This document shows, one piece after another, positions 2,726 to 45,509 of a stretch of 51,148 nt of DNA. The position numbers and the translations under genes were made by a program. Location: contig JAGOQP010000001.1 in assembly GCA_017991375.1 (NCBI GenBank), positions 1 to 51,148 of the forward strand, in the 5' to 3' direction. Origin of the DNA: Minisyncoccota bacterium. Its GTDB lineage: Bacteria; Patescibacteriota; Minisyncoccia; UBA6257; JAGOQP01. The notes under the pieces are model-generated. The model was not told the DNA's origin and searched no databases. It was given only the letters and a program-made list of their open reading frames with translations. Within the stretch, counting starts at the first letter, position 1, and each line of letters starts with the position of its first letter.

Positions 2726-3141
2726 GGTGCGCTGGCAGCTACTGTGCTCTTTTTGAGTACAGAGGAAATTCCGGACATCCCACAATACGTTTTTGCGTGT
2801 TGTGCGACGCGTAGCGGTTAACGGCCGTCGGGCGTAAGCCTCGAGGTGCGAACAGAGACGTCTTAACGCGAAAGCGTTAAGGTATCCCGCAAGGGATAAT
2901 TCTTCGATATAAGTCAGAGTTTTTTTGACACAAGTCAAAGACCCCCTCGATTTTCTTAAAAGAAGTCGAAGGGTTTACCCTGGGCGAAGTCGAAGGGTGA
3001 AACGGCTAAATCCTTACGTGGATGCAAGACCGTACCTACTTTTAGTGGGGGAGTCGCAAGGCCATTTGGCTCGAGCGTATGAGTAATTATACGCACAGAT
3101 AAATTGCTGCCGTAGTACAGAATCCGGATTATAGCGCGCCG
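2726..3141 (+). ncRNA. rnpB: RNase P RNA, bacterial type A
   Basis: Universal blocks are recognisable. AGAGGAAATTCCGGAC matches the P4 5' strand (cf. GAGGAAAGUCCGGGC). ACAGAATCCGGATTAT matches the P4 3' strand (cf. ACAGAACCCGGCUUAU). GTGCGAACAGAGAC, AAGGGTGAAACGG and AGATAAATTGCTGCC are also present. P1 pairs GGTGCGCT (2726-2733) with AGCGCGCC (3133-3140). No ORF; own promoter and terminator. Ends are +/-5 nt. Confidence 0.9.
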
Positions 3142-5541: not shown

Positions 5542-7005
5542 ATGAATAAAGAGCGTATTTTCAGGAACATACATATTTTCCTGGTTATAGCACTTTTGTC
5601 TGTGGTTGTTTTTAATGGCGCCTTGGGGGTTGTTTTCGCAACGGTTGTTTTAGACACCACTCCGCCGGTGCTCAATCTACCCTCTGATATGTGGGTCAGC
5701 GCACCAGGTCCTAGTGGAGCGATCGTTTCTTTCTCCGCGACGGCTACCGATACAGATCCAACTAATCCAACAGTGACTTGTACACCAGCATCGGGTTCGG
5801 TGTTTCCTCTTGGGTCTACCACTGTTTCTTGTTCCGCTACCGATACAGCCGGAAACACCGCAACGGGAAGTTTTGTTGTTTCTGTCGGTGGGGCAAAAAT
5901 TACCAGTGAACGTGTGACTTTGAATGGTACCAGTACAGTCACGGTCAAGGGAGGTGATACTGTTACCGCTACTATGGTCAATACCAGTGTCATGTCGGGT
6001 GAGTGGATGTCAACCAGCTATCAGATAGGAGGGGGTGAATTTCGTGTTGATACTCCAAATCATGGAGTCGGGGTTGGCTACACCGAATCATTTCCAATTA
6101 CCGCGCCTATAGCAGAAGGAGTTTATACGGTTATGTTCGGTTTTTGTGATACAGAAGGTTGTTTGGGCGATCCTATCATCCAAAGTGGATTGCCGGGTGG
6201 TTTAATTGTAGACAACACTCCTCCAGTGTTGAGTTTACCAGCTGACACTTTTGCTAGTGCTTCTGGGCCAAGCGGAATCGCCGTTTCTTTCTCCGCGACG
6301 GCTACCGATACAGATCCAACTAATCCAACAGTGACTTGTACACCAGCATCGGGTTCGGTGTTTCCTCTTGGGTCTACCACTGTTTCTTGTTCCGCTACCG
6401 ATACAGCCGGAAACACCGCAACGGGAAGTTTTGTTGTTTCTGTCGGTGGGGCAAAAATTACCAGTGAACGTGTGACTTTGAATGGTACCAGTACAGTCAC
6501 GGTCAAGGGAGGTGATACTGTTACCGCTACTATGGTCAATACCAGTGTCATGTCGGGTGAGTGGATGTCAACCAGCTATCAGATAGGAGAAGGTAGTGTT
6601 GTTTGTGTTGATACGCCCAATCATGGTGTTGGTACTAATTACACAGAATCGTTTCCTATTGTCGCCCCTCTTGCAGAGGGAGCATATACTGTTATGTTTG
6701 GTTTCTTCAGTGAAGAAAATTGCTCAGGTGATCCCGCGATACGTAGCGGGCTTCCTAACGGGTTGGTGGTGGACACCACTCCCTCTCCTGCTTTCTCTAT
6801 ACTTGGTGGGTCTGGAGGTGGAAGCACAGAATCAGCGGTGTATAGGATTGGCGATATTAACAAAGACCGTCAAGTTAATTTACTCGATCTCGTGCTCATG
6901 ATGGCAAATTGGGGGAAAACCGGATACAACGAGTGTGATCTCAATCGTGATGGAATCGTCGATAAATACGATTTTGCGTTGCTCATGCTTAATTGGGGAC
7001 TCTAA
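5542..7005 (+). CDS. secreted protein with two HYR-type modules and a C-terminal dockerin-like domain
   Basis: N-terminal signal anchor. The HYR-like block TPPVL.LP.D...A.GPSG..VSFSATATDTDPTNPTVTCTPASGSVFPLGSTTVSCSATDTAGNTATGSFVVSV occurs twice. The C-terminus GDINKDRQVNLLDLVLMM...CDLNRDGIVDKYDFALLML is the two-segment dockerin signature. Confidence 0.8.
   Translation: MNKERIFRNIHIFLVIALLSVVVFNGALGVVFATVVLDTTPPVLNLPSDMWVSAPGPSGAIVSFSATATDTDPTNPTVTCTPASGSVFPLGSTTVSCSATDTAGNTATGSFVVSVGGAKITSERVTLNGTSTVTVKGGDTVTATMVNTSVMSGEWMSTSYQIGGGEFRVDTPNHGVGVGYTESFPITAPIAEGVYTVMFGFCDTEGCLGDPIIQSGLPGGLIVDNTPPVLSLPADTFASASGPSGIAVSFSATATDTDPTNPTVTCTPASGSVFPLGSTTVSCSATDTAGNTATGSFVVSVGGAKITSERVTLNGTSTVTVKGGDTVTATMVNTSVMSGEWMSTSYQIGEGSVVCVDTPNHGVGTNYTESFPIVAPLAEGAYTVMFGFFSEENCSGDPAIRSGLPNGLVVDTTPSPAFSILGGSGGGSTESAVYRIGDINKDRQVNLLDLVLMMANWGKTGYNECDLNRDGIVDKYDFALLMLNWGL
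5724..6031 (+). repeat. 308-bp perfect direct repeat, copy 1 (inside the HYR/dockerin CDS)
   Basis: Identical base-for-base to 6282-6589. The offset is 558 nt, which is 186 codons. Confidence 0.95.
6282..6589 (+). repeat. 308-bp perfect direct repeat, copy 2
   Basis: Identical to 5724-6031. Flanking bases differ: t5723 vs c6281, and g6032 vs a6590. Confidence 0.95.
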
Positions 7006-9478: not shown

Positions 9479-9839
9479 TCTTCGGTAAACTCAGGGCAAG
9501 TCATCCAATCCTCAAAACTTCAACAAGCTCAGTACAAACATTATATCCTAACTTATGATCTAGTAACATTTGCTTCTTTGCACGAGACCAGCCCTTAATT
9601 TGTTTTTCTCGTAGTGCTGCTTCGTATTTTTTTAGATATCTCTCACAATATAGAAACTTAATATCAGAAAACTTTGAAGTGAAGAATGACTTTCCCTCTC
9701 TGTGCATGTTCAATCTTTTTTGAGGATTATCAGTTATCCCTACATAAAAAGTTTTCTGATCGCAAAGAAGCATGTACACATACCACATAATAAGTACAGT
9801 ATAACTCTTTTAAAAATGCCTGCACTGAGCTTGCCGAAG
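9479..9839 (-). mobile_element. putative 361-bp insertion carrying only a GIY-YIG gene, bounded by the tRNA-Gln 3'-end repeats
   Basis: The segment lies between two perfect 19-bp direct repeats derived from the tRNA 3' end. It contains one ORF and one hairpin. No integrase is present. Confidence 0.35.
9501..9788 (-). CDS. stand-alone GIY-YIG nuclease family protein
   Basis: 95 aa. The sequence WYVYMLLCDQKTFYVGITDNPQKRLNMHREGK...REKQIKGWSRAKK is a GIY-YIG (UPF0213/YhbQ-type) module. Confidence 0.8.
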   Translation of the reverse strand: MWYVYMLLCDQKTFYVGITDNPQKRLNMHREGKSFFTSKFSDIKFLYCERYLKKYEAALREKQIKGWSRAKKQMLLDHKLGYNVCTELVEVLRIG

Positions 9840-9841
9840 TG

Positions 9842-9912
9842 CTGGGGGACAGGGATTCGGACCCCGATTAATGGCTTCAAAGGCCACTGTCCTACCATTA
9901 GACGATCCCCCA
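9842..9912 (-). tRNA. tRNA-Gln (anticodon UUG)
   Basis: The reverse complement folds as a cloverleaf: acceptor TGGGGGA/TCCCCCA, anticodon stem GTGGC/GCCAT, loop CTTTGAA (UUG), T arm CGGGG-TCCGAAT-CCCTG. 71 nt; CCA is not encoded. Confidence 0.9.
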
Positions 9913-10067
9913 AATTTTTGACCTATATACGTTACAATGATTAAGCATTTAAATCAATATGAGTCAATTGACTTGGTTGTAAATCAAAACGATAATAAGG
10001 GTAGCACTTATCGTTTTTCGTACCTTTTCAACTTCATAGTGATTGCCGGCTCAAAAAGGAGGGCGCG

Positions 10068-16583: not shown

Positions 16584-17768
16584 ATGTCCCACACCACCAT
16601 CACGCATCATATCTCCATCATCACCCTCTCGATCCTCATGGGAGTAGCCATCCCTTCTATCATCGTCCTTGCCTCATCAGTGGTTGGTGATAACATCTCG
16701 ATCACCAATACCACTGAACAGCTCAGATTAGGATATAATTCTTCTATATATACTTCTCTAACCACTGATTCAGCAGGTAATTTGAGTATTTTATCCGCTA
16801 CTACAAGCACCCTTCCTTTTGGTATTCAGCTTGTCAATAATCGTAGTGATGGTAGCGATCTGAGCGGTAGTATCTTAGGTGGATACACCGGCAATATCAT
16901 CGATGCCTCTTCATCTGGTTCGGTTATTGCTGGTGGTGGGTGGAACGGGGGATACGAAAACAAAATCATCAATTCAATCCTCGGTTTTATTGGTGGAGGA
17001 CACGGCAACATCATCAACAGCACCACCTCTTCTCGAAAGCAAGATATGGTCATTGGTGGGGGAGCGAATAATAGCGTCGTGAGTTCTGATCAGGGAATGA
17101 TTGCGGGAGGAAATAATAACTTTATTCGCTCAGCTTATTATTCTGGTATCGCTAGTGGTAATCGTAACAGAATAGACGCTTCATCGTGGTCAACTGATAA
17201 CTCCGCAACAGCATCGTTTATTGGGGGTGGTCTTTACAATAAAATTGGAAAATCAGAATCAGCGATTCTTGGTGGGGCGTATAATGAGCTTTATGGAGAT
17301 GACTCAGTCATTCTTGGGGGAGAATCTAATATCTCTGGGGTTCCTAATACAGGTTCTCCGGATTATTCGGTTATTCTTGGTGGTAAAGAAAATGTTTTGG
17401 GTACTTCTGCAAGTTACAGCACTATTGGTGGCAGAAAAGCGTCGTCAACTCACGCCGGGGTGTTTTTGTGGGCTGACTCAAATAACTACAAATTTGCCAG
17501 TGCCGCTACCAACGAAACCGCGTTCCGTTCAACTGGTGGCGTTCGCTTTGTCACCGCTATTGATGGAAGCGGAAATCCGACTAAGACCGTCTCAATAAAT
17601 ACATCGGGGGATATTATATCTCCAGGCAAGATAGTTATGACTGCTTCAAGTACTCCTGCCTCAACTACTACTGCTTGCACTGCTGGTACGATTGTCTGGG
17701 ACTCAAGCTATGTCTACGTCTGTGTTGCCACTAATTCTTGGAAACGCTCGGCAATTAGCACGTGGTAG
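16584..17768 (+). CDS. membrane-anchored surface protein with Gly/Asn-rich beta-helix-like repeats (paralogue of 44322..45509)
   Basis: N-terminal TM helix; repeated GG..N.I motifs (IGGGHGNIIN, IGGGANNSVV, IAGGNNNFI...). Conserved C-terminal block HAGVFLWADSNNYKFASAATNETAFRSTGGVRFVTA...CTAGTIVWDSSYVYVCVATNSWKR, resembling adhesin/tail-fibre heads. Confidence 0.7.
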   Translation: MSHTTITHHISIITLSILMGVAIPSIIVLASSVVGDNISITNTTEQLRLGYNSSIYTSLTTDSAGNLSILSATTSTLPFGIQLVNNRSDGSDLSGSILGGYTGNIIDASSSGSVIAGGGWNGGYENKIINSILGFIGGGHGNIINSTTSSRKQDMVIGGGANNSVVSSDQGMIAGGNNNFIRSAYYSGIASGNRNRIDASSWSTDNSATASFIGGGLYNKIGKSESAILGGAYNELYGDDSVILGGESNISGVPNTGSPDYSVILGGKENVLGTSASYSTIGGRKASSTHAGVFLWADSNNYKFASAATNETAFRSTGGVRFVTAIDGSGNPTKTVSINTSGDIISPGKIVMTASSTPASTTTACTAGTIVWDSSYVYVCVATNSWKRSAISTW

Positions 17769-23838: not shown

Positions 23839-23976
23839 CTTCGACTCGCTTTGCTCGCTCAGGGCAGGCTCTTCGACTCGCTTTGCTCGCTCAGGGCAGG
23901 CTCTTCGACTCGCTTTGCTCGCTCAGGGCAGGCTCTTCGACTCGCTTTGCTCGCTCAGGGCAGGCTCTTCGACTCA
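23839..23976 (+). repeat. tandem repeat, 32-bp unit x about 4.3 (CTTCGACTCGCTTTGCTCGCTCAGGGCAGGCT)
   Basis: Unit starts at 23839, 23871, 23903, 23935 and 23967 (partial). The copies abut directly, with no spacers. Confidence 0.95.
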
Positions 23977-24157
23977 CGCTCGGGGTCTGTCGTAGGCAGA
24001 CAACTTATAACAAATGACAAAAAAATAAACTAATACATTTTAGTACGTCACGGCGAATTAATGACTGTGGATAAAATAATTTAAGTTAATGTTGACTGAT
24101 AGTAATATATGCGATATCAATAAGGATAGCAATCCAGATCAAAAAAGGGAGGGGCCT

Positions 24158-24791: not shown

Positions 24792-25145
24792 ATGTCTTTG
24801 GAAAATTATGAAATAGCAGCAGAGCCACAAGAAGTGGCAGTGAGTTCACGAGTGCTGGAGTTGCTTGAAATGCTTGCAATGGCGGATGATGATGTTATAG
24901 CTCGGTTTAAAGAATCATTGTCTCCACGAAAAAGAATCATTTTTGAAAAATCGTCTCCAGATGAACAGAAAACAATTGTTTCACTGACGGCCCTTTCCCC
25001 TAGCGTAATAGAAGAAATGCTTAGGCATGAAAAAAGCCCTGGACTTCATGACGTCAGAGAATATTTGGGTCACGCTTTTTTCTTTACTGGAGATGAGAAA
25101 TACGATCGCTTGTCTCACGTGATGTTCGATGAGGTCTTACTATAA
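24792..25145 (+). CDS. hypothetical acidic protein
   Basis: ORF preceded by TTGACT (24753-24758). The start is uncertain (24765 or 24792). The 3' end overlaps uvrC convergently by 62 nt. No family recognised. Confidence 0.45.
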   Translation: MSLENYEIAAEPQEVAVSSRVLELLEMLAMADDDVIARFKESLSPRKRIIFEKSSPDEQKTIVSLTALSPSVIEEMLRHEKSPGLHDVREYLGHAFFFTGDEKYDRLSHVMFDEVLL

Positions 25146-26274
25146 GCATCTTTTGAGTCCTTTGTCTGTGGTATGTGATCGCAAATCGATGTGCTTCATC
25201 GCGGATAGCAAGAAATAGTTGGGCTATTTCTTTGGGAAATGCTGATAGCGCCACACCTCTTTTTGCCCAAGGGGAATATAACATTCCTTTTGTTGCCAAT
25301 CGCTTTGTTTCTATTTTATTAGTAATCGAACGTTTGTGCTGCTTTGCTTTGGCGAGAGCGACTATAGGAAGGGGAATATCTTTGAGCGCGGAGAGCTGCC
25401 CTTTTCCTCCGTCTATTACTATAAGGTCAGGATAGGGCCACTCGGTGTGGGCAAGACGTCTTTGAATAACTTCACGCAGTGATTGTGGATCGTTTGCTCC
25501 AGACACTGTTTTAATTCTAAATTTTCTGTAGGCGCCTTTATTGGATTTTGAGCCATTAAACACCACACATGAACCAACTGAGTGAGATCCTTGGGTGTTT
25601 GATATGTCGTAGCATTCTATGCGAGGAGTAACAGGCGCGGGCGCGTATGGCTGACGAATGCGAATATTTCCGGCGTATAAGTAAAGCAACGTTTTGAGTG
25701 CCGCGATTACCAGGTGATATGTCCGAGCTTTTTCCAAATGAGCATTGCAGAGCCCTAAGTGGTAGTACAAGCATGGTTTGTGAATGGAACTAGTACATGT
25801 TTTATAAGGGAAAAGCGTTCGTGCTGACATGAGTAATTGTTTTGCTTCTTTTGATGATACGAATGGACCTATAATATTTCCAGGAGCGATTTTTGGTTGA
25901 TGTGTTGTAGTAATTCGTGGATAGGACTCGTTGGATATAACAACGAAAAGAAAATTTTTATCGTCTTTGAGTTCTACGTTATATTTTGGCTGATGACGTT
26001 TGATAAGGATTGATTCTAAAATAAGAGCATCATTTTCAGTTTTGGTGGTTATGTAGTCAATATCGGCAATAGCGCCGTAGGGGACTATAGTGCTCGGAAT
26101 TTTATTATTTCTCTTGTTTGATCGATGGGTCACAAAGTGACCGCGTACGCGCGCGCGAATATTTTTGGCCTTTCCAATGTATAAGATTTCTTGGAGACGA
26201 TTTTTAAAAAGATATATTCCCGGGAGGGTTGGTAGTATCTTTATTTTTTCTTTTACGCTTTTTTTCATTATCAC
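25084..26274 (-). CDS. uvrC: excinuclease ABC subunit C, minimal form (396 aa)
   Basis: N-terminal GIY-YIG (PGIYLFKNRLQEILYIGKAKNIRARV). UvrC endonuclease-domain blocks: RIECYDISNTQG, YRKFRIK, PDLIVIDGGKGQLSA, RDEAHRFAITYHR. I see no UVR-domain block and no C-terminal (HhH)2. Confidence 0.85.
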   Translation of the reverse strand: MIMKKSVKEKIKILPTLPGIYLFKNRLQEILYIGKAKNIRARVRGHFVTHRSNKRNNKIPSTIVPYGAIADIDYITTKTENDALILESILIKRHQPKYNVELKDDKNFLFVVISNESYPRITTTHQPKIAPGNIIGPFVSSKEAKQLLMSARTLFPYKTCTSSIHKPCLYYHLGLCNAHLEKARTYHLVIAALKTLLYLYAGNIRIRQPYAPAPVTPRIECYDISNTQGSHSVGSCVVFNGSKSNKGAYRKFRIKTVSGANDPQSLREVIQRRLAHTEWPYPDLIVIDGGKGQLSALKDIPLPIVALAKAKQHKRSITNKIETKRLATKGMLYSPWAKRGVALSAFPKEIAQLFLAIRDEAHRFAITYHRQRTQKMLIVRPHRTSRETSDRISHLQ

Positions 26275-26291
26275 TTAAGTATAACGTGTAC

Positions 26292-26374
26292 GAGCCCCCA
26301 GGAAAGGGGGCTCGGTGTGTGCGGGTGGGGTCAGGAACTATGGTATGTTGCAGGTGCCGCCAAGATCGCGAAGG
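26292..26374 (-). repeat. 83-bp module, copy A (last 12 codons of the small gene plus downstream hairpin)
   Basis: Identical to 26782-26864. It contains the hairpin GAGCCCCC-aggaaa-GGGGGCTC and encodes LRDLGGTCNIP* on the minus strand. Confidence 0.95.
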
Positions 26375-26721
26375 AGCTGTGATCTTTCTTCGTAGAGCTT
26401 CCTTGATTGAGCAAGTAATGCATTCAAAGTACCCCTCCATTTCTCTAACGTTGTCTCGTTTGGTATAGGGTCAATCCGTTTCCCTTGAGCTATATTGTCA
26501 AAGAGATTAGTAAGTGCTTTGGGAAGCATAAAATAGTTTCCGATCAAACGTGCGGTGGTGGCCAGGCGAAACATGTCGTTATGCCACATTCCCTCTTTTA
26601 GCGTTCTAACAACCTGATGCCCTGAAGCCACATACAATACCAAGGCAGATAACTCACTAACACTCAGTCCCTGTTCAGGAAGTGGGAGCATCTTCCCTTT
26701 TGTTTGAGTGCTGTACGACAT
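26338..26721 (-). CDS. hypothetical 127-aa protein, paralogue 1 (C-terminus ...LRDLGGTCNIP)
   Basis: AAGGGAG lies 7 nt before the ATG (MSYSTQTKGKMLPL...). Promoter TTGACA (26772-26767), 17 nt, TTAAAT (26749-26744). Shares N-terminal, central (RIDP, E.W) and C-terminal blocks with 26828..27202. Confidence 0.65.
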   Translation of the reverse strand: MSYSTQTKGKMLPLPEQGLSVSELSALVLYVASGHQVVRTLKEGMWHNDMFRLATTARLIGNYFMLPKALTNLFDNIAQGKRIDPIPNETTLEKWRGTLNALLAQSRKLYEERSQLLRDLGGTCNIP

Positions 26722-26781
26722 TTTTTGTCTCCCTTCACCAGTCATTTAATAAGACTTGTCTTGCGTTGTCAAATAAAATAT

Positions 26782-26864
26782 GAGCCCCCAGGAAAGGGGG
26801 CTCGGTGTGTGCGGGTGGGGTCAGGAACTATGGTATGTTGCAGGTGCCGCCAAGATCGCGAAGG
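26782..26864 (-). repeat. 83-bp module, copy B
   Basis: Identical to 26292-26374, offset 490 bp. A third, diverged copy of the non-coding part lies at 27264-27302. Confidence 0.95.
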
Positions 26865-27202
26865 GATCTCTTTTTTCGTTCAAAGAGCCTCCCGACTCTG
26901 GTGTTTGCTTCGTCTAGAATCCTTGACCACCTTTCTAAGGTTTCTATTGCAACAGGGTCAATCCGTTCTTCTCTGGTGATTTTATCAAAGAGACGAAGAA
27001 GCTCTTGCGGAAGAGCAATATAAAGCTCGACTTTGTCGGTTGTACCAATTTGAAGAGATGGCGGATTCTGGGGGTTCTGAGTTTTTAGCCACTCAATAAC
27101 AAATGATATCGATTGAATCTTCAGTAGCAAACAGTACAAGTCGTTAACACTTAGATTAAAAAGTGGAAGCACTTTCTTTCCCTTTTGTGTACTATGTGAC
27201 AT
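26828..27202 (-). CDS. hypothetical 124-aa protein, paralogue 2 (C-terminus ...LRDLGGTCNIP)
   Basis: GGAAGGAG before the ATG (MSHSTQKGKKVLPL...). Promoter TTGACA (27254-27249), 17 nt, TTAAAT. Own hairpin terminator. Confidence 0.65.
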   Translation of the reverse strand: MSHSTQKGKKVLPLFNLSVNDLYCLLLKIQSISFVIEWLKTQNPQNPPSLQIGTTDKVELYIALPQELLRLFDKITREERIDPVAIETLERWSRILDEANTRVGRLFERKKRSLRDLGGTCNIP

Positions 27203-27303
27203 TTTCAGATCTCCTTCCCGAGTTTATTTAATAGGATTTATATCATGTTGTCAAATAAAATACGAGCCCCCAGGAAAGGGAGCTCGGTGTGTGCAGGTGG
27301 GTT

Positions 27304-28044
27304 CTAGAACGAGTATGAGAGTCCGGCGCCGACGATGAACTCAGTTGTTCGATCGTCGGTTACGTCGATGGGGGTTGAGAACTTGATATCGGTTAGGATC
27401 GCTGTCCTTGCCGATATCTTTGCTTTGGTGGTTACGAAGGCCTGGCCGAGCCAACCCTCGTTTTTCCCAAGCCCTCCGCTGTCGTGGAAGATTCGGGCAT
27501 TGGCCGATAGCTCGATAGCGGGGGTAATGCTCCACCGCCACCTGGCGCCAGCATATCCCCACTGGGTCCATCCGGGTTGAAAATTGGTTTTGCTTCCATC
27601 CACGTTGTGGTATCCCTCCAAACGCAGATAGGGGGCTACCGCGACGGTGCCAAGGGTGAACGAACGACCGATCTCCGCGTATGGAGACCAGACGTCGTTA
27701 AACACTGTCCCCAATGGAACGACGTCGATGTAGAGAATTCCCACATCAACGTTGTACGCGCCCAGGGGTTTGACGATGCCGACGTTATAGTCGATCTCGT
27801 TGGCGAAGGTGGTGTGAAATCCACCTCCATTTGCCGCGCACGACCACCAGATGTCGGCGTACACGCCGTTGCTCCACCCGGCCCATAGGTCGGTTTGGAC
27901 CACGGGGGTGTCGTAGAAGATTCCACCGTTTTGGCCAAGATATCGCGAAAACATCTTGGATGTGAGCGTGAGGTTCTGAGCGTCTGCCGCGTGGGCAAAG
28001 CACAGAGCTAGTGTGATGGCAATAACCACGGCGATCTTTTTCAT
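27304..28044 (-). CDS. outer-membrane beta-barrel-like protein (resembles the TIGR02001/Gcw_chp pattern)
   Basis: Signal peptide MKKIAVVIAITLALCFAHAADA|QN. LTLTSKMFSRYLGQNGG...PVVQTDLWAGWSNGVYADIWWS...NEIDYNVG resembles the proteobacterial Gcw_chp barrel N-terminus. C-terminal GAGLSYSF ends in Phe. G+C is visibly higher than in neighbouring genes. Confidence 0.6.
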   Translation of the reverse strand: MKKIAVVIAITLALCFAHAADAQNLTLTSKMFSRYLGQNGGIFYDTPVVQTDLWAGWSNGVYADIWWSCAANGGGFHTTFANEIDYNVGIVKPLGAYNVDVGILYIDVVPLGTVFNDVWSPYAEIGRSFTLGTVAVAPYLRLEGYHNVDGSKTNFQPGWTQWGYAGARWRWSITPAIELSANARIFHDSGGLGKNEGWLGQAFVTTKAKISARTAILTDIKFSTPIDVTDDRTTEFIVGAGLSYSF

Positions 28045-28204
28045 CTTTCTATCTCCCTTTCTTGTCTTTGTCGGTTGTACTGATTGTCAATCTTATATTA
28101 GCATAATAATTTGATGATGTCAATTTATACAGAGTAAATTCTCGCGCTTGTTGCGTGGAGTTGATGTGGCAATGTCAACCAGAAGTTGTTGATGTTATAG
28201 ATTA

Positions 28205-28248: not shown

Positions 28249-31218
28249 ATGAAATCGAAAAAACAACAAAAATCGGATGTTATTGAAATTATCGGCGCTC
28301 ACGTTCACAACCTAAAAAACGTGACTGTCTCCATACCCAAAAACAAACTCGTGGTGGTCTGTGGTGTTTCTGGATCAGGGAAGTCATCGCTCGCGTTTGA
28401 CACGCTCTATGAAGAGGGGCAGCGCCGCTACCTAGAGAGTTTGTCATCGTACGTGCGGCAGTTTTTGGGTGGGTTTAAAAAGCCCGACGTTCATAAAATC
28501 ATCGGACTTTCACCAACGATTGCCATTAACCAAAAAAGTGTGTCTTCCAATCCACGTTCAACGGTTGGAACTATCACTGAGATATACGATCACCTAAGGT
28601 TACTTTTTGCGCGCGTTGGGACTCCCTACTGTCCCCACGATAATATTCCTATTACTGCCCAAACGCCTCAAGAAATCGCCAGCCACATAATAACGCTCTC
28701 AAAAGATACGCAGATTACTATTTTGGGGCCGGTCGTTTCAGGGAAAAAGGGGACACACCAAGCGATTTTTGACGAAATTGCGCGGAGTGGGTACACACAG
28801 GTGCGTGTCGATGGGTTTGTGTATGCTTTATCCGAGGCACGAGAACTGACGCTTGATAAAAATAAAAAACATACCATTGAGGTGATAGTGGGAACATTTA
28901 TGACCGGCATCAAAGCCGACATTCAAAAAGGGGTCTCCAAAGCGGAAAAACAAGCGCTCAAGAATAAAAATAAAAAATTGGAACGGTTTTTCAAAGAAGA
29001 AAAAGTGGAATTATTAGAAAAAATCAGAAAAGCGCTTTTGATGGGGAATGGATCTCTTAATGTTCTTGTGCGGCCTCTTTCGGGAAGTGTTGAACATAAA
29101 AAACGCGGTGAGAAAGTGTATGCTTTTTCTGAATTATACGCGTGTCCGCGTTGTGGGTTTTCTATTCCAAAAGTTGAGCCACGCTCATTTTCATTTAATA
29201 GTCCTTTTGGCGCGTGCGTTTCATGTCAGGGGTTGGGGACTAAGCTCGAAATGGATATGGAGCTTCTTATCAATCGGGACATTTCTCTTGAGGCGGGGGC
29301 CATTCGGCCGTGGTTTGCTTTGAGTCGCATGGCGCGTCGCGCGTTGGGGTCAAATTGGCAACACTTTGTCGTTGAGACCATCTTAGAGAATCATTCTATT
29401 TCTCCTCGCACGCCGTTTAAAGACATTCCCAAAGAAATCCAAGACGAAATTCTTTTTGGCAAAAAAGATGATTATATATATTTACAAGACGGATCATGGG
29501 AGGGGAAAACAATGTTTGAAGGAATTATTCCTCGTTTGGAACGATTGTATTACGAAACGGATTCAGATTTTATTCGGCAAGAGCTTTCTCGATATATGCG
29601 CGAAGCCACATGTCCAACATGCGGTGGCTCTCGATTAAAACCAGAAGCGCTTGCCGTACGTGTTGGTGGTAAAACTATTTTCGATGTTGCTACTATGCCA
29701 GCGGTTGATATGATTCGATTTTTTTCAGACGGGATTTATCGCGCGATGAGTGTTTCATCTCGAGCGGTTGCGGAACCGATTGTGAAAGAAATTGTTGCCA
29801 AAGCGCACTTTCTCGTTGATGTGGGTCTTGAATACATTACTATCGCACGAAGCGCGACCACTTTGTCTGTTGGAGAAAATCAACGTATTCGTTTGGCAAC
29901 GCAACTGGGGTCTGGACTATCGGGCGTTATTTATGTTTTAGACGAACCAACCATCGGGCTTCACCCGCGTGATACTGATCGACTCATAAAAACGCTCAAA
30001 GGGCTGCGTGATCTTGGAAACACGGTTATAGTAGTGGAACACGACGAGCGTGTAATAGAGGAAGCTGATTGGGTTGTTGAAATTGGGCCACTTGCCGGGA
30101 GCGAAGGAGGCAGATTGGTTTTTGAGGGAACTCCCGCTCAACTTGCTCTCTCATCAACGCTCACCGGACAGTATTTGTCGGGAAAGAAAAAAGCGGCATC
30201 GGGACTTTTAAAGAATCTCGTGCTTCATACTCCCTCGCAAACAGTAACTGTGTCTGGGGCGTCTCAGTTTAATCTTAAAAAGGTCTCCTTGTCTGTTCCG
30301 CTCAGAAAATTTACCGTGGTGGCTGGAGTTTCTGGATCTGGCAAAAGCACGCTTGTGCTTGATGTGTTTGCAACCGCGTTACAAAAAGAGGTAATGGATA
30401 TGAGCGTCGTTCCCGGGATATACGATGGACTTACCGGGCAGAGCAATCTTGATAAAGTCGTACTTATTGATCAAAGCCCCATCGGACGTACGCCACGATC
30501 AAATCCGGCAACTTATACGGGAATTTTTACCTATATCCGGCAGTTTTTTACGCGACTTGAGGAAGCGCAAATTCGAGGATACGGACCATCATATTTTAGT
30601 TTTAATGTAAAACCCGGTCGATGCGAAGCGTGCAAGGGAGAGGGATTTAAAAAAGTGGAAATGTATTTTCTTCCCGATATGTATGTAGAGTGCGAAGTGT
30701 GTCGGGGGACTCGCTTTTCTCCCGAGGTGCTTGATGTAAAGTACAAAGACAAGCACATTGCCGATGTTCTTGCAATGAGTGTGCGCGAAGCGCGGGAGTT
30801 TTTTGCGTCATTTTCATACATTGCGGAAAAACTTACGGTATTAGAGGAAATTGGACTTGGATATATGAAGCTCGGACAGCCAGCGACAACACTTTCTGGA
30901 GGAGAGGCACAACGTATCAAGCTCGCGGACGAGCTTTCAAAACGAGCAACGGGGAAAACGATGTACGTACTAGACGAACCGACGGTAGGGCTTCATTTTG
31001 AAGACACGCGAAAACTACTCTATATTTTGCGATCGTTGGTGCTCAAAGGTAACACCGTAGTAGTTATTGAACACAATCTAGATGTGCTCAAGGAGGCTGA
31101 CTGGATTATTGAGCTTGGTCCTGAGGGAGGAGACAAGGGAGGACAAATTATATTTGAGGGAACCGTTGATGATATAAAGAAAAAGAAAACAACGACGGGG
31201 AAATATCTTGTTAACTAA
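28249..31218 (+). CDS. uvrA: excinuclease ABC subunit A
   Basis: 989 aa. Two ABC modules (GVSGSGKSS and GVSGSGKST; LSGGE... signatures; VLDEPT Walker B) and Zn modules (CPRCG...[14 protein letters not shown]...CEVCRG). Confidence 0.97.
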
Positions 31219-31672: not shown

Positions 31673-31815
31673 CTTGCCCTGACTTGTGGTGAGTGTGATC
31701 GAACCAGCGAAGTCGAAGGGTGAAAAGCTTGCCCTGAGCGAAGTCGAAGGGTGAAAAGCTTGCCCTGAGCGAAGTCGAAGGGTGAAAAGCTTGCCCTGAG
31801 CGAAGTCGAAGGGTT
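31672..31815 (-). repeat. tandem repeat, 31-bp unit x about 3.6 (GCTTGCCCTGAGCGAAGTCGAAGGGTGAAAA on +)
   Basis: Full units start at 31727, 31758 and 31789, preceded by one interrupted unit. Same family as 23839-23976 but in inverted orientation. Confidence 0.9.
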
Positions 31816-32053
31816 AATCCGTGTCCTAGTAAAAAAATACGGCTGATAAGGTGTTGTGAGCAAACACTCTTACCAGCCGATGCGGCGTCGGGGCATGTGT
31901 GCCCTCTTGCTTGTAGGCGGGTCAGAAGATCTTCTTCATCGGCGCACCTCCCCATTCTCTATGGCATTGAAGGAAGTGAATAATATGGCTCTCGCTATAA
32001 AACCACCTCCTTTTTTGTATTTGCAAAAGCTCGTTTGGTAGTGCTGACGCGAG

Positions 32054-32287
32054 CTATTTGCAGTACTGTCCGATGAGGAGATATACTCCCCGTGCGATCA
32101 GGAGAGTAGACGCGACGGCGAGCGCTACCTTGATCCATAGCCAACTCGTTGTCGCTACAATCATGATGGCGATTCCAGCCAACGCAATACCGAGCGCTAG
32201 CGGAAAAACTCCAAGGATTGAGTCAGCGTGTTCGTCTCCCATCCACGCCTCTGGTTGTTCTTGATGCCCAGTTATCGTTGTTTCCAC
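32054..32287 (-). CDS. small two-TM membrane protein
   Basis: GTG start 7 nt after AAGGAGGG. Promoter TTGACT, 17 nt, TAAAGT just upstream. Two hydrophobic helices (ILGVFPLALGIALAGIAIMIVA, WIKVALAVASTLLIARGVYLLIG). Confidence 0.55.
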   Translation of the reverse strand: METTITGHQEQPEAWMGDEHADSILGVFPLALGIALAGIAIMIVATTSWLWIKVALAVASTLLIARGVYLLIGQYCK

Positions 32288-32374
32288 TGTCGTCCCTCCT
32301 TTTTAAGTGTGCGTAAAATTGACTTTAGCACAAATATAATTTTCAGTCAACAAATTGTTTTTATTGTTATACAT

Positions 32375-33254
32375 AAAAAAACGAGCCACTACTTCAACGG
32401 GGTTGTTTTCCCGCGAAGTCGTGGCTCTAGCCAGATTGTTTCTTTGGTCTGGCGCCAACGCCTTTTGGCGTTAGTTCCGACAGATGTCGGGGGTGCTGCG
32501 TATCTTTTGGCGTCCGCCTCGACAAACAAGAAGAGTGCAGTTGTTTCGTCCTTCTTCTTGATGGAGGCCGTGCTTGGGGCGGTGCTCTATCTACGGGCTA
32601 CGGGCACCGTTACAACAACGACATGCGCAAGAACTCCCTATCTAACTCGCTCGGGAATTTCTCGCGACTTTTTGCGCCCATACCACGCCTAGGCGCCGGG
32701 CTGCCTGGTCTCTTGGTTGGGCCTACCAGGACTTCTCGCCGTACGCGACGACGTCATGCTTTAGCCGCTCCGCCTCACACGCATGTTTGGGGCCCTCCGT
32801 GAGTGCTTATCCAGCACTCCGCGCTCCGGGTTGTTGTTACTCACCACCCATCTTGATGAGTGGTGAGATGAACTTGAGTCCTCGCTTCGTTTTTAGGCGA
32901 CCATCTTGAGCGGGATCAGCCCACGACGAAGCTCGGACGAAGCTGGCGACGGGTGATGGCCGCAGCCAGAAACGAGCGGACAATCATAGGTATCCTCCTT
33001 CCGCCATTGGCGGATGGTAGGCGCCCTTGTTGGCCTTTCCGGGTTTGTGCCGCGTGTTGCCACGGTATTAAGATCACTATCTTAATACCGTCCCCACTGC
33101 TTGAGATTTGCTAAGGTTGGTTAGGCCATAGCAAAACAAACCTGGGTTACGCGCATGCTTCGTGGAACTTCCCAAGGACTGACTTCTCCTTTTGTGGTTA
33201 TTAAAACCATCCACCCCCTTTCCTTTCGTTGGTTTCAACACAACTCAATGAACT
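32375..33254 (-). ncRNA. about 880-nt GC-rich structured RNA candidate of unknown class
   Basis: Promoter TTGACT (33289-33284), 17 nt, TATCAT (33266-33261). Long terminator hairpin (32383-32427) plus a 7-U tract. There are many perfect local helices and no credible ORF on either strand. Confidence 0.55.
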
Positions 33255-33538
33255 GGTTCTATGATACAGCGCTAAACGAGAAGAGTCAAATAGACGGAGG
33301 ATAATCATTGATCCTTGATCACTAATCCTTAACCGCAGGACATTAATCGCTTGTCTTTAGTCATTTTTCTTTGGCTTGAGATCTCGCATAGTGAATAATC
33401 ATGTCTTCAATCTCAATGCATGATTGACGATTAGTAAACATTCTTTTCCTGTGGTGAGTAGTTAGTTGTTTATCCTGAGCGAGCAGAGCGAGTCGAGTGG
33501 TTTGTTGTTGGTTGTTAGTTGTCGATTATTCTCATTGT

Positions 33539-37966: not shown

Positions 37967-37994
37967 GGAAGGGTCGCATAGTGGTCTAGTGCGC
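37967..37994 (+). pseudogene. 28-nt duplicate of the tRNA-Ser 5' end (acceptor 5' strand plus D arm) without a 3' half
   Basis: GGAAGGGTCGCATAGTGGTCTAGTGCGC is identical to 38117-38144, exactly 150 nt upstream. The following sequence has no anticodon or T arm. Confidence 0.7.
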
Positions 37995-38116: not shown

Positions 38117-38203
38117 GGAAGGGTCGCATAGTGGTCTAGTGCGCTCGCTTGGAAAGCGGGTGTGCCTTAACCGGCACCGAGAGTTCAAATCTCTCCCCTT
38201 CCG
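38117..38203 (+). tRNA. tRNA-Ser (anticodon GGA)
   Basis: Acceptor GGAAGGG/CCCTTCC, anticodon stem CTCGC/GCGGG with loop TTGGAAA, long variable arm GTGCC-ttaacc-GGCAC, T arm GAGAG-TTCAAAT-CTCTC. 87 nt; CCA is not encoded. Confidence 0.9.
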
Positions 38204-44294: not shown

Positions 44295-44321
44295 TTAATA
44301 TATTTAATGTATAAAAGTTCC

Positions 44322-45509
44322 ATGTCACATAAAGTTACATCTCGTCTCCTTCCTATTATTATCCTTTCCATTCTCATTGGTTTAGCCATTCCCTCGGTAA
44401 TCGTTCTTGCCTCATCAGTTATCGGCAATAACATTTCGGTTACTCATACCACCGAACAGCTTCGACTTGGGTATGATGCTTCAACCTATACTTCTTTTAC
44501 TACTGATTCGGCAGGTAATCTGAGTATCTTGTCTGCTACTACCAGCACACTCCCTTTTGGTATTCAGCTTGTCAATAATCGTAGAGACAGTAGTGGTATC
44601 AGCGGCAGTATTTTAGGTGGATACACGGGAAACATCATAGACGCCTCTTCCTCTGGTTCGGTTATTGCCGGTGGAGGATGGAATGAGGGGTATGAAAACA
44701 AAATCTTGGGATCCATCGGCGCTTTTATTGGTGGAGGTCATGGCAATATCATCAACAGCACCACTTCTTCTCCAAGGCAAGACATGACTATTGGCGGTGG
44801 AGCTAATAACCAAATTGTAAGCACCGACCAGGGAACTATTGCGGGAGGGAATATGAACTTTATTCGGTCGGCTTTCTATTCAACCATTGGGGGCGGTACA
44901 TTCAATAGTATTGATGCTTCATCGTGGTCAACGGATAACGCTGCCTCGGCGTCTGTTATTGCCGGTGGAATGCTTAATAAGATTGGTAAAAGTGTTGATT
45001 TCATAGGGGGAGGATGGGGCAACGAAGTGTATGGAGATTATTCGTCTATTGTTGGAGGATATCTTAACATCTCTGGAGTTCCAGCATTGGGTGCTCCGGA
45101 CTATTCGGTTATTCTTGGCGGCAGGGAAAATGTTTTGGGTATTTCTGCGCATTATAGCACTGTTGGGGGATATAAGGCGTCGTCAACTCACGCTGGAGTG
45201 TTTTTGTGGGCTGACTCAAACAACTACAAATTCGCCAGTGCTGCTACCAACGAAACCGCGTTTCGCTCTACTGGTGGTGTGCGTTTTGTGACGGCTATTG
45301 ACGGGAGTGGCAATCCAACCAAAACAACATCTATTAACTCTTCGGGAAACCTCACCGTGGGAGGAAGTACTATTACCCTTACCTCTTCAAGCACTCCTGC
45401 TTCAAGCACTACTGCCTGTACTGCCGGCACAATCTCGTGGGACTCTAGCTATGTCTATGTTTGTGTCGCGACCAATACTTGGAAACGTTCAGCAATCAGC
45501 ACATGGTAA
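44322..45509 (+). CDS. membrane-anchored surface protein, paralogue of 16584..17768
   Basis: Collinear with 16584..17768 along its full length (roughly four residues in five identical by eye). Same MSH... start, TM helix, GG..N repeats and C-terminal ...CTAGTISWDSSYVYVCVATNTWKRSAISTW. Confidence 0.75.
   Translation: MSHKVTSRLLPIIILSILIGLAIPSVIVLASSVIGNNISVTHTTEQLRLGYDASTYTSFTTDSAGNLSILSATTSTLPFGIQLVNNRRDSSGISGSILGGYTGNIIDASSSGSVIAGGGWNEGYENKILGSIGAFIGGGHGNIINSTTSSPRQDMTIGGGANNQIVSTDQGTIAGGNMNFIRSAFYSTIGGGTFNSIDASSWSTDNAASASVIAGGMLNKIGKSVDFIGGGWGNEVYGDYSSIVGGYLNISGVPALGAPDYSVILGGRENVLGISAHYSTVGGYKASSTHAGVFLWADSNNYKFASAATNETAFRSTGGVRFVTAIDGSGNPTKTTSINSSGNLTVGGSTITLTSSSTPASSTTACTAGTISWDSSYVYVCVATNTWKRSAISTW

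Follow-up and report, generated by a model that had tools for sequence, protein, structure and literature searches.

Why do two neighbouring, long-diverged genes end in exactly the same 83 bp of DNA? The question is raised by a locus of a Minisyncoccota bacterium (assembly GCA_017991375.1, contig JAGOQP010000001.1), of which positions 1 to 51,148 of the forward strand were analysed, hereafter the window. Between uvrC and uvrA, the window carries two small minus-strand genes, A and B, and a gene for a 246-amino acid (aa) secreted protein that resembles an outer-membrane beta-barrel (the barrel gene). A sequence-only reading of the window had offered two ideas on the shared end of A and B. One was ongoing gene conversion or modular assembly; the other was a C-terminal peptide, Gly-Gly followed by TCNIP, recalling a double-glycine leader/core junction or a CaaX-like tag. 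In our analysis the identical block is probably (about 0.7) a recombination footprint in a common terminator module, and the GG-TCNIP tail a by-product of it and not a processing signal.

Three copies of a hairpin module

The small genes, their putative signals and the module copies (T1 to T3) are arranged as follows.

26289..26374, minus strand: module copy T1, made up of the final 11 codons and the stop codon of gene A (26338-26373), then a C/A-rich 24-nt spacer and a hairpin
26292-26313, minus strand: T1 hairpin, GAGCCCCC-TTTCCT-GGGGGCTC, without a U-tract; uvrC starts 21 nt downstream
26338..26721, minus strand: gene A, 127 aa, an orphan, soluble, predicted four-helix protein; its start is the ATG behind GGGAGA, not that of the 135-aa open reading frame (ORF)
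26728..26772, minus strand: putative promoter and ribosome-binding site of gene A (TTGACA 26772..26767, 17-nt spacer, TTAAAT 26749..26744, Shine-Dalgarno (SD) sequence GGGAGA 26733..26728)
26779..26864, minus strand: module copy T2, made up of the final 11 codons and the stop codon of gene B, the spacer, a hairpin at 26782-26803 and then AUAUUUUAUUU
26828..27202, minus strand: gene B, 124 aa, paralogue of A; its orthologue in the conspecific strain L011 (P0005) is 97% identical
27210..27254, minus strand: putative promoter and ribosome-binding site of gene B (TTGACA 27254..27249, 17-nt spacer, TTAAAT 27231..27226, SD sequence GGAGA 27214..27210)
27261..27302, minus strand: module copy T3, non-coding part only; its hairpin (27263-27286), with a U-tract, is the putative terminator of the barrel gene

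The repeat was borne out as it had been described. Positions 26292-26374 and 26782-26864 are identical over 83 unbroken bases, and the extended block (26289-26374 and 26779-26864) matches at 85 of 86 positions. A repeat finder returned a single family of three direct copies, at 26289-26374, 26779-26864 (99% identical) and 27261-27346 (67%). What the third copy has in common with the others is its non-coding 42 nt (27261-27302), which lie 3' of the barrel gene and contain two mismatches; a diverged copy at this place had been noted before. All three copies have the same orientation and are in register with the gene ends. The 22-nt hairpin GAGCCCCC-AGGAAA-GGGGGCTC occurs three times in the 51 kb at up to three mismatches, with 0 expected by chance, and each time inside the uvrA-uvrC island. 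A repeat survey of the whole window yielded no further member of the module. The string TTGTCAAATAAAATA(T/C)GAGCCCCC, said to link a hairpin to the next promoter, was found at 26766 and 27248.

The block has sharp borders. In a MAFFT alignment of the 490- and 482-nt units, identity was 30-77% per 30-nt window and then abruptly 100% over the last ~85 nt. T2 is a hybrid, T1-like upstream of the hairpin (tail and spacer) and T3-like downstream of it (TATTTTATTTGACAAC), which is exactly what a crossover inside the hairpin, between a small-gene end and a barrel-gene end, predicts. It also has a private variant, absent from both T1 and T3 of the window: the base that follows the stem is A where the others have G. 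The exact sequence common to T3 and T2 of the window is just 17 nt. The two mismatches that separate T3 from T1 and T2 are absent from strain L001, whose T3 equals T1/T2 at both sites.

T2 and T3 have the features of intrinsic terminators: a stem of 8-9 bp, a 6-nt loop and then UAUUUUAUUU. Terminators were called at the hairpins after gene B and after the barrel gene, and the hairpin is stable. At T1, upstream of uvrC, the stem is present and the U-tract absent. T2 thus probably behaves as an intrinsic terminator abutting the -35 of gene A. The promoter-like sites of A and B were read by eye, and the consensus scanner called neither because the -10 TTAAAT has no canonical A at position 2; the putative promoter region of gene B is conserved in L011. 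The sequence-only reading had given each small gene its own promoter, SD sequence and terminator. The TTGACA-17-TTAAAT sites, the SD sequences and the terminator after B stand, but a terminator after A does not, the hairpin there having no U-tract. On the plus strand the module is G-rich at 26303-26335 and 26793-26825 (GGGGGCTCGGTGTGTGCGGGTGGGGTCAGG); the mRNA complement is a C/A-rich unstructured spacer.

Identity at silent and non-coding sites

In BLASTP, the proteins of A and B have 41% identity (E 9e-26). Both end in the same 11 residues, LRDLGGTCNIP, in agreement with their earlier description as paralogues. Substitutions were counted by the Nei-Gojobori method. In the body of the genes, synonymous differences are saturated (pS 0.74; pN 0.43). 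The dN/dS ratio was 0.34 between A and B, 0.39 between B and its orthologue in the other strain, and 0.375 for a pair of orthologues from the related lineage described below; neighbouring genes had 0.07-0.22. Because three independent comparisons gave 0.34-0.39, A and B are judged to be real coding genes, apparently under relaxed purifying selection after an old duplication. The small proteins evolve two to three times faster than their neighbours: dN to the related lineage was 0.9-1.2 for the small protein, compared with 0.38 for the barrel, 0.43 for uvrC and 0.21 for uvrA.

The tail departs from this picture. Its 11 codons contain 8.7 synonymous sites, at which ~6.4 differences are expected at the pS of the body and none was seen (P ~8e-6). 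The 24-nt spacer between stop and hairpin is identical in both units (P 5e-6 to 2e-3), as are all 47 non-coding nt of the block. Silent and non-coding identity amid saturated bodies excludes selection on the peptide as its cause, and a recent homogenisation at the DNA level fits.

Gene content between uvrA and uvrC varies among relatives

Relatives were reached through the barrel gene and then with a three-sequence profile. A search with the 246-aa protein gave a 99% match on the Logan contig L001 and a 54% match in metagenome-assembled genomes of Candidatus Paceibacterota. All loci have the same synteny, uvrA ... uvrC ... uvrB, and differ in what lies between uvrA and uvrC.

Window: barrel gene, B and A
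L002-L007, L010 and L012: barrel gene and one 123-aa gene
L008/L009: barrel gene, followed directly by a hairpin and uvrC; no small gene
L011: B only; neither the barrel gene nor A

Although very distant (26% identity), the 123-aa protein found in the related lineage is a genuine homologue of A and B. The motifs STQ, LxL(Y), P.P(K/Q)xL..(L/F)F and E..W are common to both. A profile search with this protein gave five sequences in all. Synteny of the island extends to a relative in which uvrA has just ~69% DNA identity, and a hairpin with a related stem stands before uvrC at the same position in distant relatives.

L011 is conspecific with the window (nucleotide identity 98.9% for uvrA and 97.6% for uvrC). 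Samples with conspecific strains are ERR7015365, ERR14964774, SRR11088371 and DRR438493. Its order is uvrA, a truncated hairpin, a promoter, B, the module and uvrC. Bases 9836-9920 of L011 align equally well to window 26863-26779 and 26373-26289, so the 490-bp indel of gene A ends inside the module. In other words, B of L011 runs through one module into the uvrC flank, a reciprocal-type product found in nature. The indel of the barrel gene has its junction at a 3-nt microhomology within the 5' arm of T3, so that half a hairpin is left; from this junction, it appears to be an illegitimate deletion, unlike the indel of gene A.

Differences between strains are concentrated in module copies. Three of the 22 differences between L001 and the window fall in the last 45 nt (P ~0.0015). 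Between B of L011 and B of the window, three differences lie in 16 nt at the block border and four in the 337-nt body (P ~0.001), and at two of these three border sites B of the window equals A of the window. The clusters are suggestive of patchy conversion among copies, with few sites to go on and no outgroup. The module is also where the Logan contigs L001, L013 and L014 break off or begin, which is expected because the 31-mers there are repeated.

A probable recombination footprint in a terminator module

We propose that the uvrA-uvrC interval of this Paceibacteria genome is a strain-variable hot spot holding three independent one-gene units, namely the secreted beta-rich protein and the two old paralogues A and B, both lineage-restricted and fast-evolving. 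Each unit ends in the same GC-rich hairpin module, which in A and B runs 36 nt into the reading frame and thereby supplies the final 11 codons together with the stop. As putative intrinsic terminators, the hairpins of B and of the barrel gene directly abut the -35 of the next promoter. The 83-bp identity would then stem from recent homologous recombination within the module. Likely routes are unequal crossing-over, in which the hairpin at the end of one allele recombines with the hairpin that precedes another, gene conversion between tandem copies, or both. The same module would serve as substrate for copy gain and loss, giving none, one or two small genes in relatives, and the GG-TCNIP tail would be a passenger of the recombination tract. 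The direction of the recombination, the exact type of event and the activity of terminators and promoters are what we infer from this arrangement.

The block has what distinguishes a segment homogenised by recombination: sharp borders, identity at silent and non-coding sites, and breakpoints in the repeat among relatives. The earlier proposal of gene conversion or modular assembly is thereby strengthened, both by the silent and non-coding identity set against saturated bodies and by the single-copy structure of L011, which is as recombination would produce it.

Several points weigh against this explanation. The tandem order of B and A rests on a single assembled contig. Without an outgroup, the polarity is not fixed: L011 may have undergone a deletion or the window an insertion, and B may have been converted by A or L011 may have acquired private mutations. 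The module search covered 51 kb of a ~127-kb contig, so a dispersed mobile module is possible. In addition, the -10 TTAAAT of the putative A and B promoters is non-canonical, and the function of the small proteins is a guess.

Segmental conversion and unequal crossing-over are known from babA/babB of Helicobacter pylori and tufA/tufB of E. coli and Salmonella. As there, old diverged paralogues share a sharp-bordered perfect block with silent and non-coding sites homogenised, and the repeat drives duplication and deletion, with copy number differing between strains. Here, in contrast, the tract is just 83 bp long and centred on the 3' untranslated region and terminator, and the genes are orphans of the candidate phyla radiation (CPR). 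A looser parallel is offered by the pilE/pilS cassettes of Neisseria, in which a conserved 3' coding end and a downstream Sma/Cla repeat serve recombination. Common to both is a variable body with a short stretch of conservation at the N-terminus and, on the other side, a conserved 3' end with repeat. Unlike pilS, neither copy here is silent; both have a promoter-like site, an SD sequence and a start, and there are only two. Their bodies are saturated and not minicassette mosaics, and there is no evidence of programmed variation.

A bolder version of our explanation holds that the module is a dedicated, recombinase-free handle by which Paceibacteria populations swap, stack or drop self-contained orphan cassettes, each with promoter, ORF and terminator, at one fixed site of the chromosome, and that the four-helix proteins are strain-specific conflict factors in anti-phage defence or host interaction. 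This we consider improbable. Literature searches returned nothing specific on a similar terminator-centred conversion.

Other explanations of the identical end

It is very improbable that the constant tail is a functional C-terminal tag kept by selection, whether through double-glycine cleavage that releases or modifies TCNIP or through CaaX-like lipidation of the Cys. The tails of A and B are identical, the Cys stands four residues from the end and the last three residues are predicted to be disordered, all as a tag would have it, but the identity covers every synonymous site and the 47 non-coding nt as well. Within the species, P0005 ends in ...LRDLDGTCNIP, so that Gly-Gly is broken (D-G, not G-G). 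The syntenic 123-aa orthologues of the related lineage (P0006 and P0007) end in ...MLLGI(K/R)QL, with neither GGTCNIP nor a C-terminal Cys, and P0007 has no Cys at all. These are homologues without the terminal peptide, and the module itself has no copy outside this locus in the 51 kb or in the 12 kb of L011. Pattern scans of GTDB genomes and JGI metagenomes (DLGGTCNI/RDLGGTCN and the N-terminal motif) gave no tail-bearing or other relative. The Gly-Gly of double-glycine leaders ends an N-terminal leader of 15-30 aa; the likeness to C39-processed bacteriocin leaders or leaders of ribosomally synthesized and post-translationally modified peptides (RiPPs) is confined to a Gly-Gly and the short Cys-containing stretch behind it. 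Here, Gly-Gly is not N-terminal; it occupies residues 121-122 of 127, within helix 89-123 of the model of a folded, ~125-aa helical protein, five residues from the C-terminus. The 'core' would be only five residues long, and the motif is not conserved. That no peptidase, exporter or modifying enzyme is adjacent had been seen before, and a Pfam survey of the whole 51 kb agreed: near the island there is no C39 peptidase or processing ABC exporter, no RiPP enzyme and no prenyltransferase. As a CaaX box, CNIP is atypical, with a polar residue (Asn) at the first 'a' and Pro at X, and the Cys is absent from P0006 and P0007. The tag proposed by the sequence-only reading was accordingly given up.

There is a small chance that the 86-bp module is itself a mobile element, similar to miniature inverted-repeat transposable elements (MITEs) or repetitive extragenic palindromes (REPs) and carrying a terminator, which inserted independently at three gene 3' ends and gave two of the genes a new stop and tail. 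MITE- and REP-like elements are known to fuse short tails to ORFs in other bacteria, three hairpin-bearing copies are at hand, and only part of the genome was searched. However, the three copies in the 51 kb are confined to one island, in one orientation and in register with gene ends, and no other is present in the 12-kb contig of L011 or in viral contigs. Apart from the hairpin itself, the copies have no terminal inverted repeats, and a target-site duplication is absent; the hairpin before uvrC in distant relatives marks the site as ancestral, not newly inserted. The chance is slim that A and B are alternative alleles of co-existing strains, strung in tandem through the module by the assembly. 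A strain with B only exists, gene A was seen in no other sample, and T3 of L001 shares at least 38 identical nt with the module, where a short-k graph could offer a path. Against this, the ~127-kb contig passes straight through the 83-bp repeat, T2 has its own variant after the stem, and the 17 exact nt shared by T3 and T2 of the window would not collapse at the usual k values. Recombination would be needed even then, to account for the identical tail and flank of two saturated alleles. Hardly credible is an integron-like cassette array in which the hairpin module is an attC-type site for a site-specific recombinase. The likeness to integron cassettes and Vibrio chromosomal repeats lies in the small, mostly orphan ORFs, each with a conserved hairpin repeat behind it, and in a content that changes from strain to strain. 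Unlike in those arrays, each unit has its own promoter-like site and SD sequence, and the hairpin repeat extends over the end of the ORF and is a putative terminator. The Pfam survey found no integrase or other recombinase in the 51 kb, and, read against general knowledge of attC, the module has no RYYYAAC/GTTRRRY cores and no long imperfect palindrome. The L011 barrel indel, at its 3-nt microhomology, is illegitimate and not site-specific. We also discarded a diversity-generating retroelement with variable and template repeats: the bodies differ at ~55% of positions of all kinds, not at adenines only, and the only reverse transcriptase-like Pfam match is an RNase H gene at 2107-2556.

An orphan four-helix protein family

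The family comprises five sequences among ~15 billion. Gene A alone matched only itself among 5.8 billion clustered proteins, and a full HMMER pass with the two-sequence profile of A and B over 1.84 billion representatives recovered only these two proteins. Exact-protein look-ups of A and B gave no other contig. There was no match in Pfam, NCBIfam, PHROGs or PADLOC. The best hit of the sequence profile in the PDB was a spectrin coiled coil at E 0.018, which is not significant.

With the five sequences, AlphaFold2 gave a model with a predicted local distance difference test (pLDDT) score of 81.7 and a predicted template modelling score of 0.73; with two sequences, the result was poor (pLDDT 53). 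The model has helices at residues 21-43, 49-62, 68-78 and 89-123, and residues 1-16 and 125-127 are disordered. Foldseek searches of PDB and BFVD found no fold relative (best E >=0.6, template modelling score <0.5). The proteins are taken to be soluble on the basis of a maximum 19-residue hydropathy <=1.5 and the absence of a signal peptide. Invariant positions are the hydrophobic core and P67, E89 and W95, without a catalytic-looking set.

A helix-turn-helix at residues 20-45, LacI/XRE-like by eye, had no Pfam support at E<=10. The same holds for a UVR-domain-like reading of ...LFERKKRSLRDL beside a UvrC without a UVR domain, which was also dropped because its spacing deviates by one residue and the related lineage does not have the motif. 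A toxin-antitoxin reading of the small genes was rejected.

Our best guess, a doubtful one, is a non-enzymatic binding or regulatory accessory protein in conflict or strain-specific interaction. It is drawn from the invariance of only the core and P67/E89/W95, the two- to threefold faster evolution and the dispensability of the genes. Patescibacteria-specific defence genes, ldgA and ddgA, are reported to be widespread in the phylum (bioRxiv 10.1101/2025.02.28.640651), unlike the A/B family with its five members.

The barrel gene, the flanks and the rest of the window

The island is completed by the barrel gene and bounded by two conserved flanks.

25084..26268, minus strand: uvrC, short form (394 aa), with Pfam GIY-YIG and RNase H endonuclease matches; conserved downstream flank
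27304..28044, minus strand: 246-aa secreted beta-rich protein with a signal peptide, Gly/aromatic alternations and the end ...SYSF; resembles an outer-membrane beta-barrel
28095..28123, minus strand: promoter-like site of the 246-aa gene, TTGACA-17-TAATAT with an upstream TG
28249..31218, plus strand: uvrA, by Pfam; the second conserved flank, opposite uvrC

The 246-aa gene is an independent cassette of the same hot spot. Only two homologue clusters of its protein were found in 5.8 billion proteins. Its orthologues (L002 10001-10738, L008 321-1058) have weak Pfam matches to Gcw_chp (E 2e-3 to 3.5e-3) that score ~18 bits, below the gathering threshold of 24, and the protein of the window itself has none. 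It is like Gcw_chp (PF09694), ~230-aa putative outer-membrane proteins of proteobacteria, in length, signal peptide and C-terminal aromatic residue, and unlike it in these sub-threshold scores and in its Paceibacterota host. Paceibacterota are generally regarded as lacking an outer membrane.

The island had been called GC-richer than the flanking uvr genes and, on that ground, acquired. The first statement is correct for the 246-aa gene (GC 0.557), but not for A (0.456) and B (0.421), compared with uvrA (0.449) and uvrC (0.412). The second did not hold up. In three lineages the barrel gene is GC-richer than its own genome (0.557 vs 0.441, 0.444 vs 0.358 and 0.470 vs 0.371), which indicates a compositional trait, and the island is syntenic in the relative.

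At the same hot spot, L002 has two direct repeats of ~90 nt (9530-9720 and 9786-9914; attcgtgtgg...ggttatgctattcgtgta) that are absent from the window. Also absent from the window is a gene for a 63-aa single-pass membrane peptide, which in L002 lies ahead of the barrel gene.

The 394-aa UvrC has no UVR or (HhH)2 Pfam match. Its last residues are ...RETSDRISHLQ in the window vs ...QKNILKKSLSS in L011, and DNA identity downstream of uvrC falls to 88%. With the exception of a TetR-HlyD pair ~20 kb from the island, all that the Pfam survey of the 51 kb detected were housekeeping genes. Genes for PGK, RNase H, DnaX, ScpA/B, D-Ala-D-Ala carboxypeptidase, a MraY-like protein, FtsW, MurG, UvrABC, DUF167, SDR, RmuC, GroEL, NUDIX, GDSL, cupin, TetR and HlyD were recorded.

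Further repeats were observed in the window. GC-rich tandem repeats at 23839-23998 and 31706-31817, with units of 32 nt (~5 copies, CTTCGACTCGCTTTGCTCGCTCAGGGCAGGCT) and 31 nt (~4 copies), are in mutually opposite orientation, bracket uvrB-uvrC-island-uvrA and contain spurious 'RSGQALR'-type ORFs. Single copies related to them lie at 1963-2010, 2952-3001 and 33474-33513. A family of AT-rich intergenic repeats of ~30-40 nt (ATAATCATTAATCTTTTATCTTTAATCCTTGACC and variants) occurs in both orientations and often ends in TTGAC; a dozen copies were listed, at 2036, 3219, 3298, 13771, 17808, 31255, 33301, 35369, 35415, 37885, 37925 and 42518. They may be promoter-associated. The first 28 nt of tRNA-Ser(GGA) have an exact duplicate 150 nt upstream of the gene (37967-37994 and 38117-38144), which may be a remnant of integration or duplication.

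A second paralogous pair (16584-17768 and 44307-45509, both plus strand; 394 and 400 aa) has no Pfam match at E<=1e-5. Its members share stretches of 300 and 257 nt with 79-82% DNA identity, in register and 27.7 kb apart. The ORF at 5542-7005 (487 aa; HYR domains and a C-terminal dockerin) has an internal 300-nt repeat (5648-5947/6206-6505) with 90% identity, 558 nt apart. A 154-aa ORF at 32228-32692 (plus strand), with no Pfam match, lies in a patch of 58% GC (32400-33000) in a genome of 44% GC; this region is present in L011 at ~92% identity.

What the locus means

The mechanism is ordinary and familiar, being segmental conversion or unequal crossing-over. What is particular is the tiny 83-bp terminator tract and the orphan cargo. 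A shared terminator hairpin would here be a recombination anchor that, in a reduced CPR genome, homogenises gene ends, including a few codons, and alters how many copies of an accessory gene are present. The locus also warns that, where diverged paralogues end in the same peptide, that peptide can be a by-product of events at the DNA level and not a functional tag. As an orphan family in a hot spot that varies within the species, A and B are candidates for strain-specific functions in the little-known accessory biology of the CPR.

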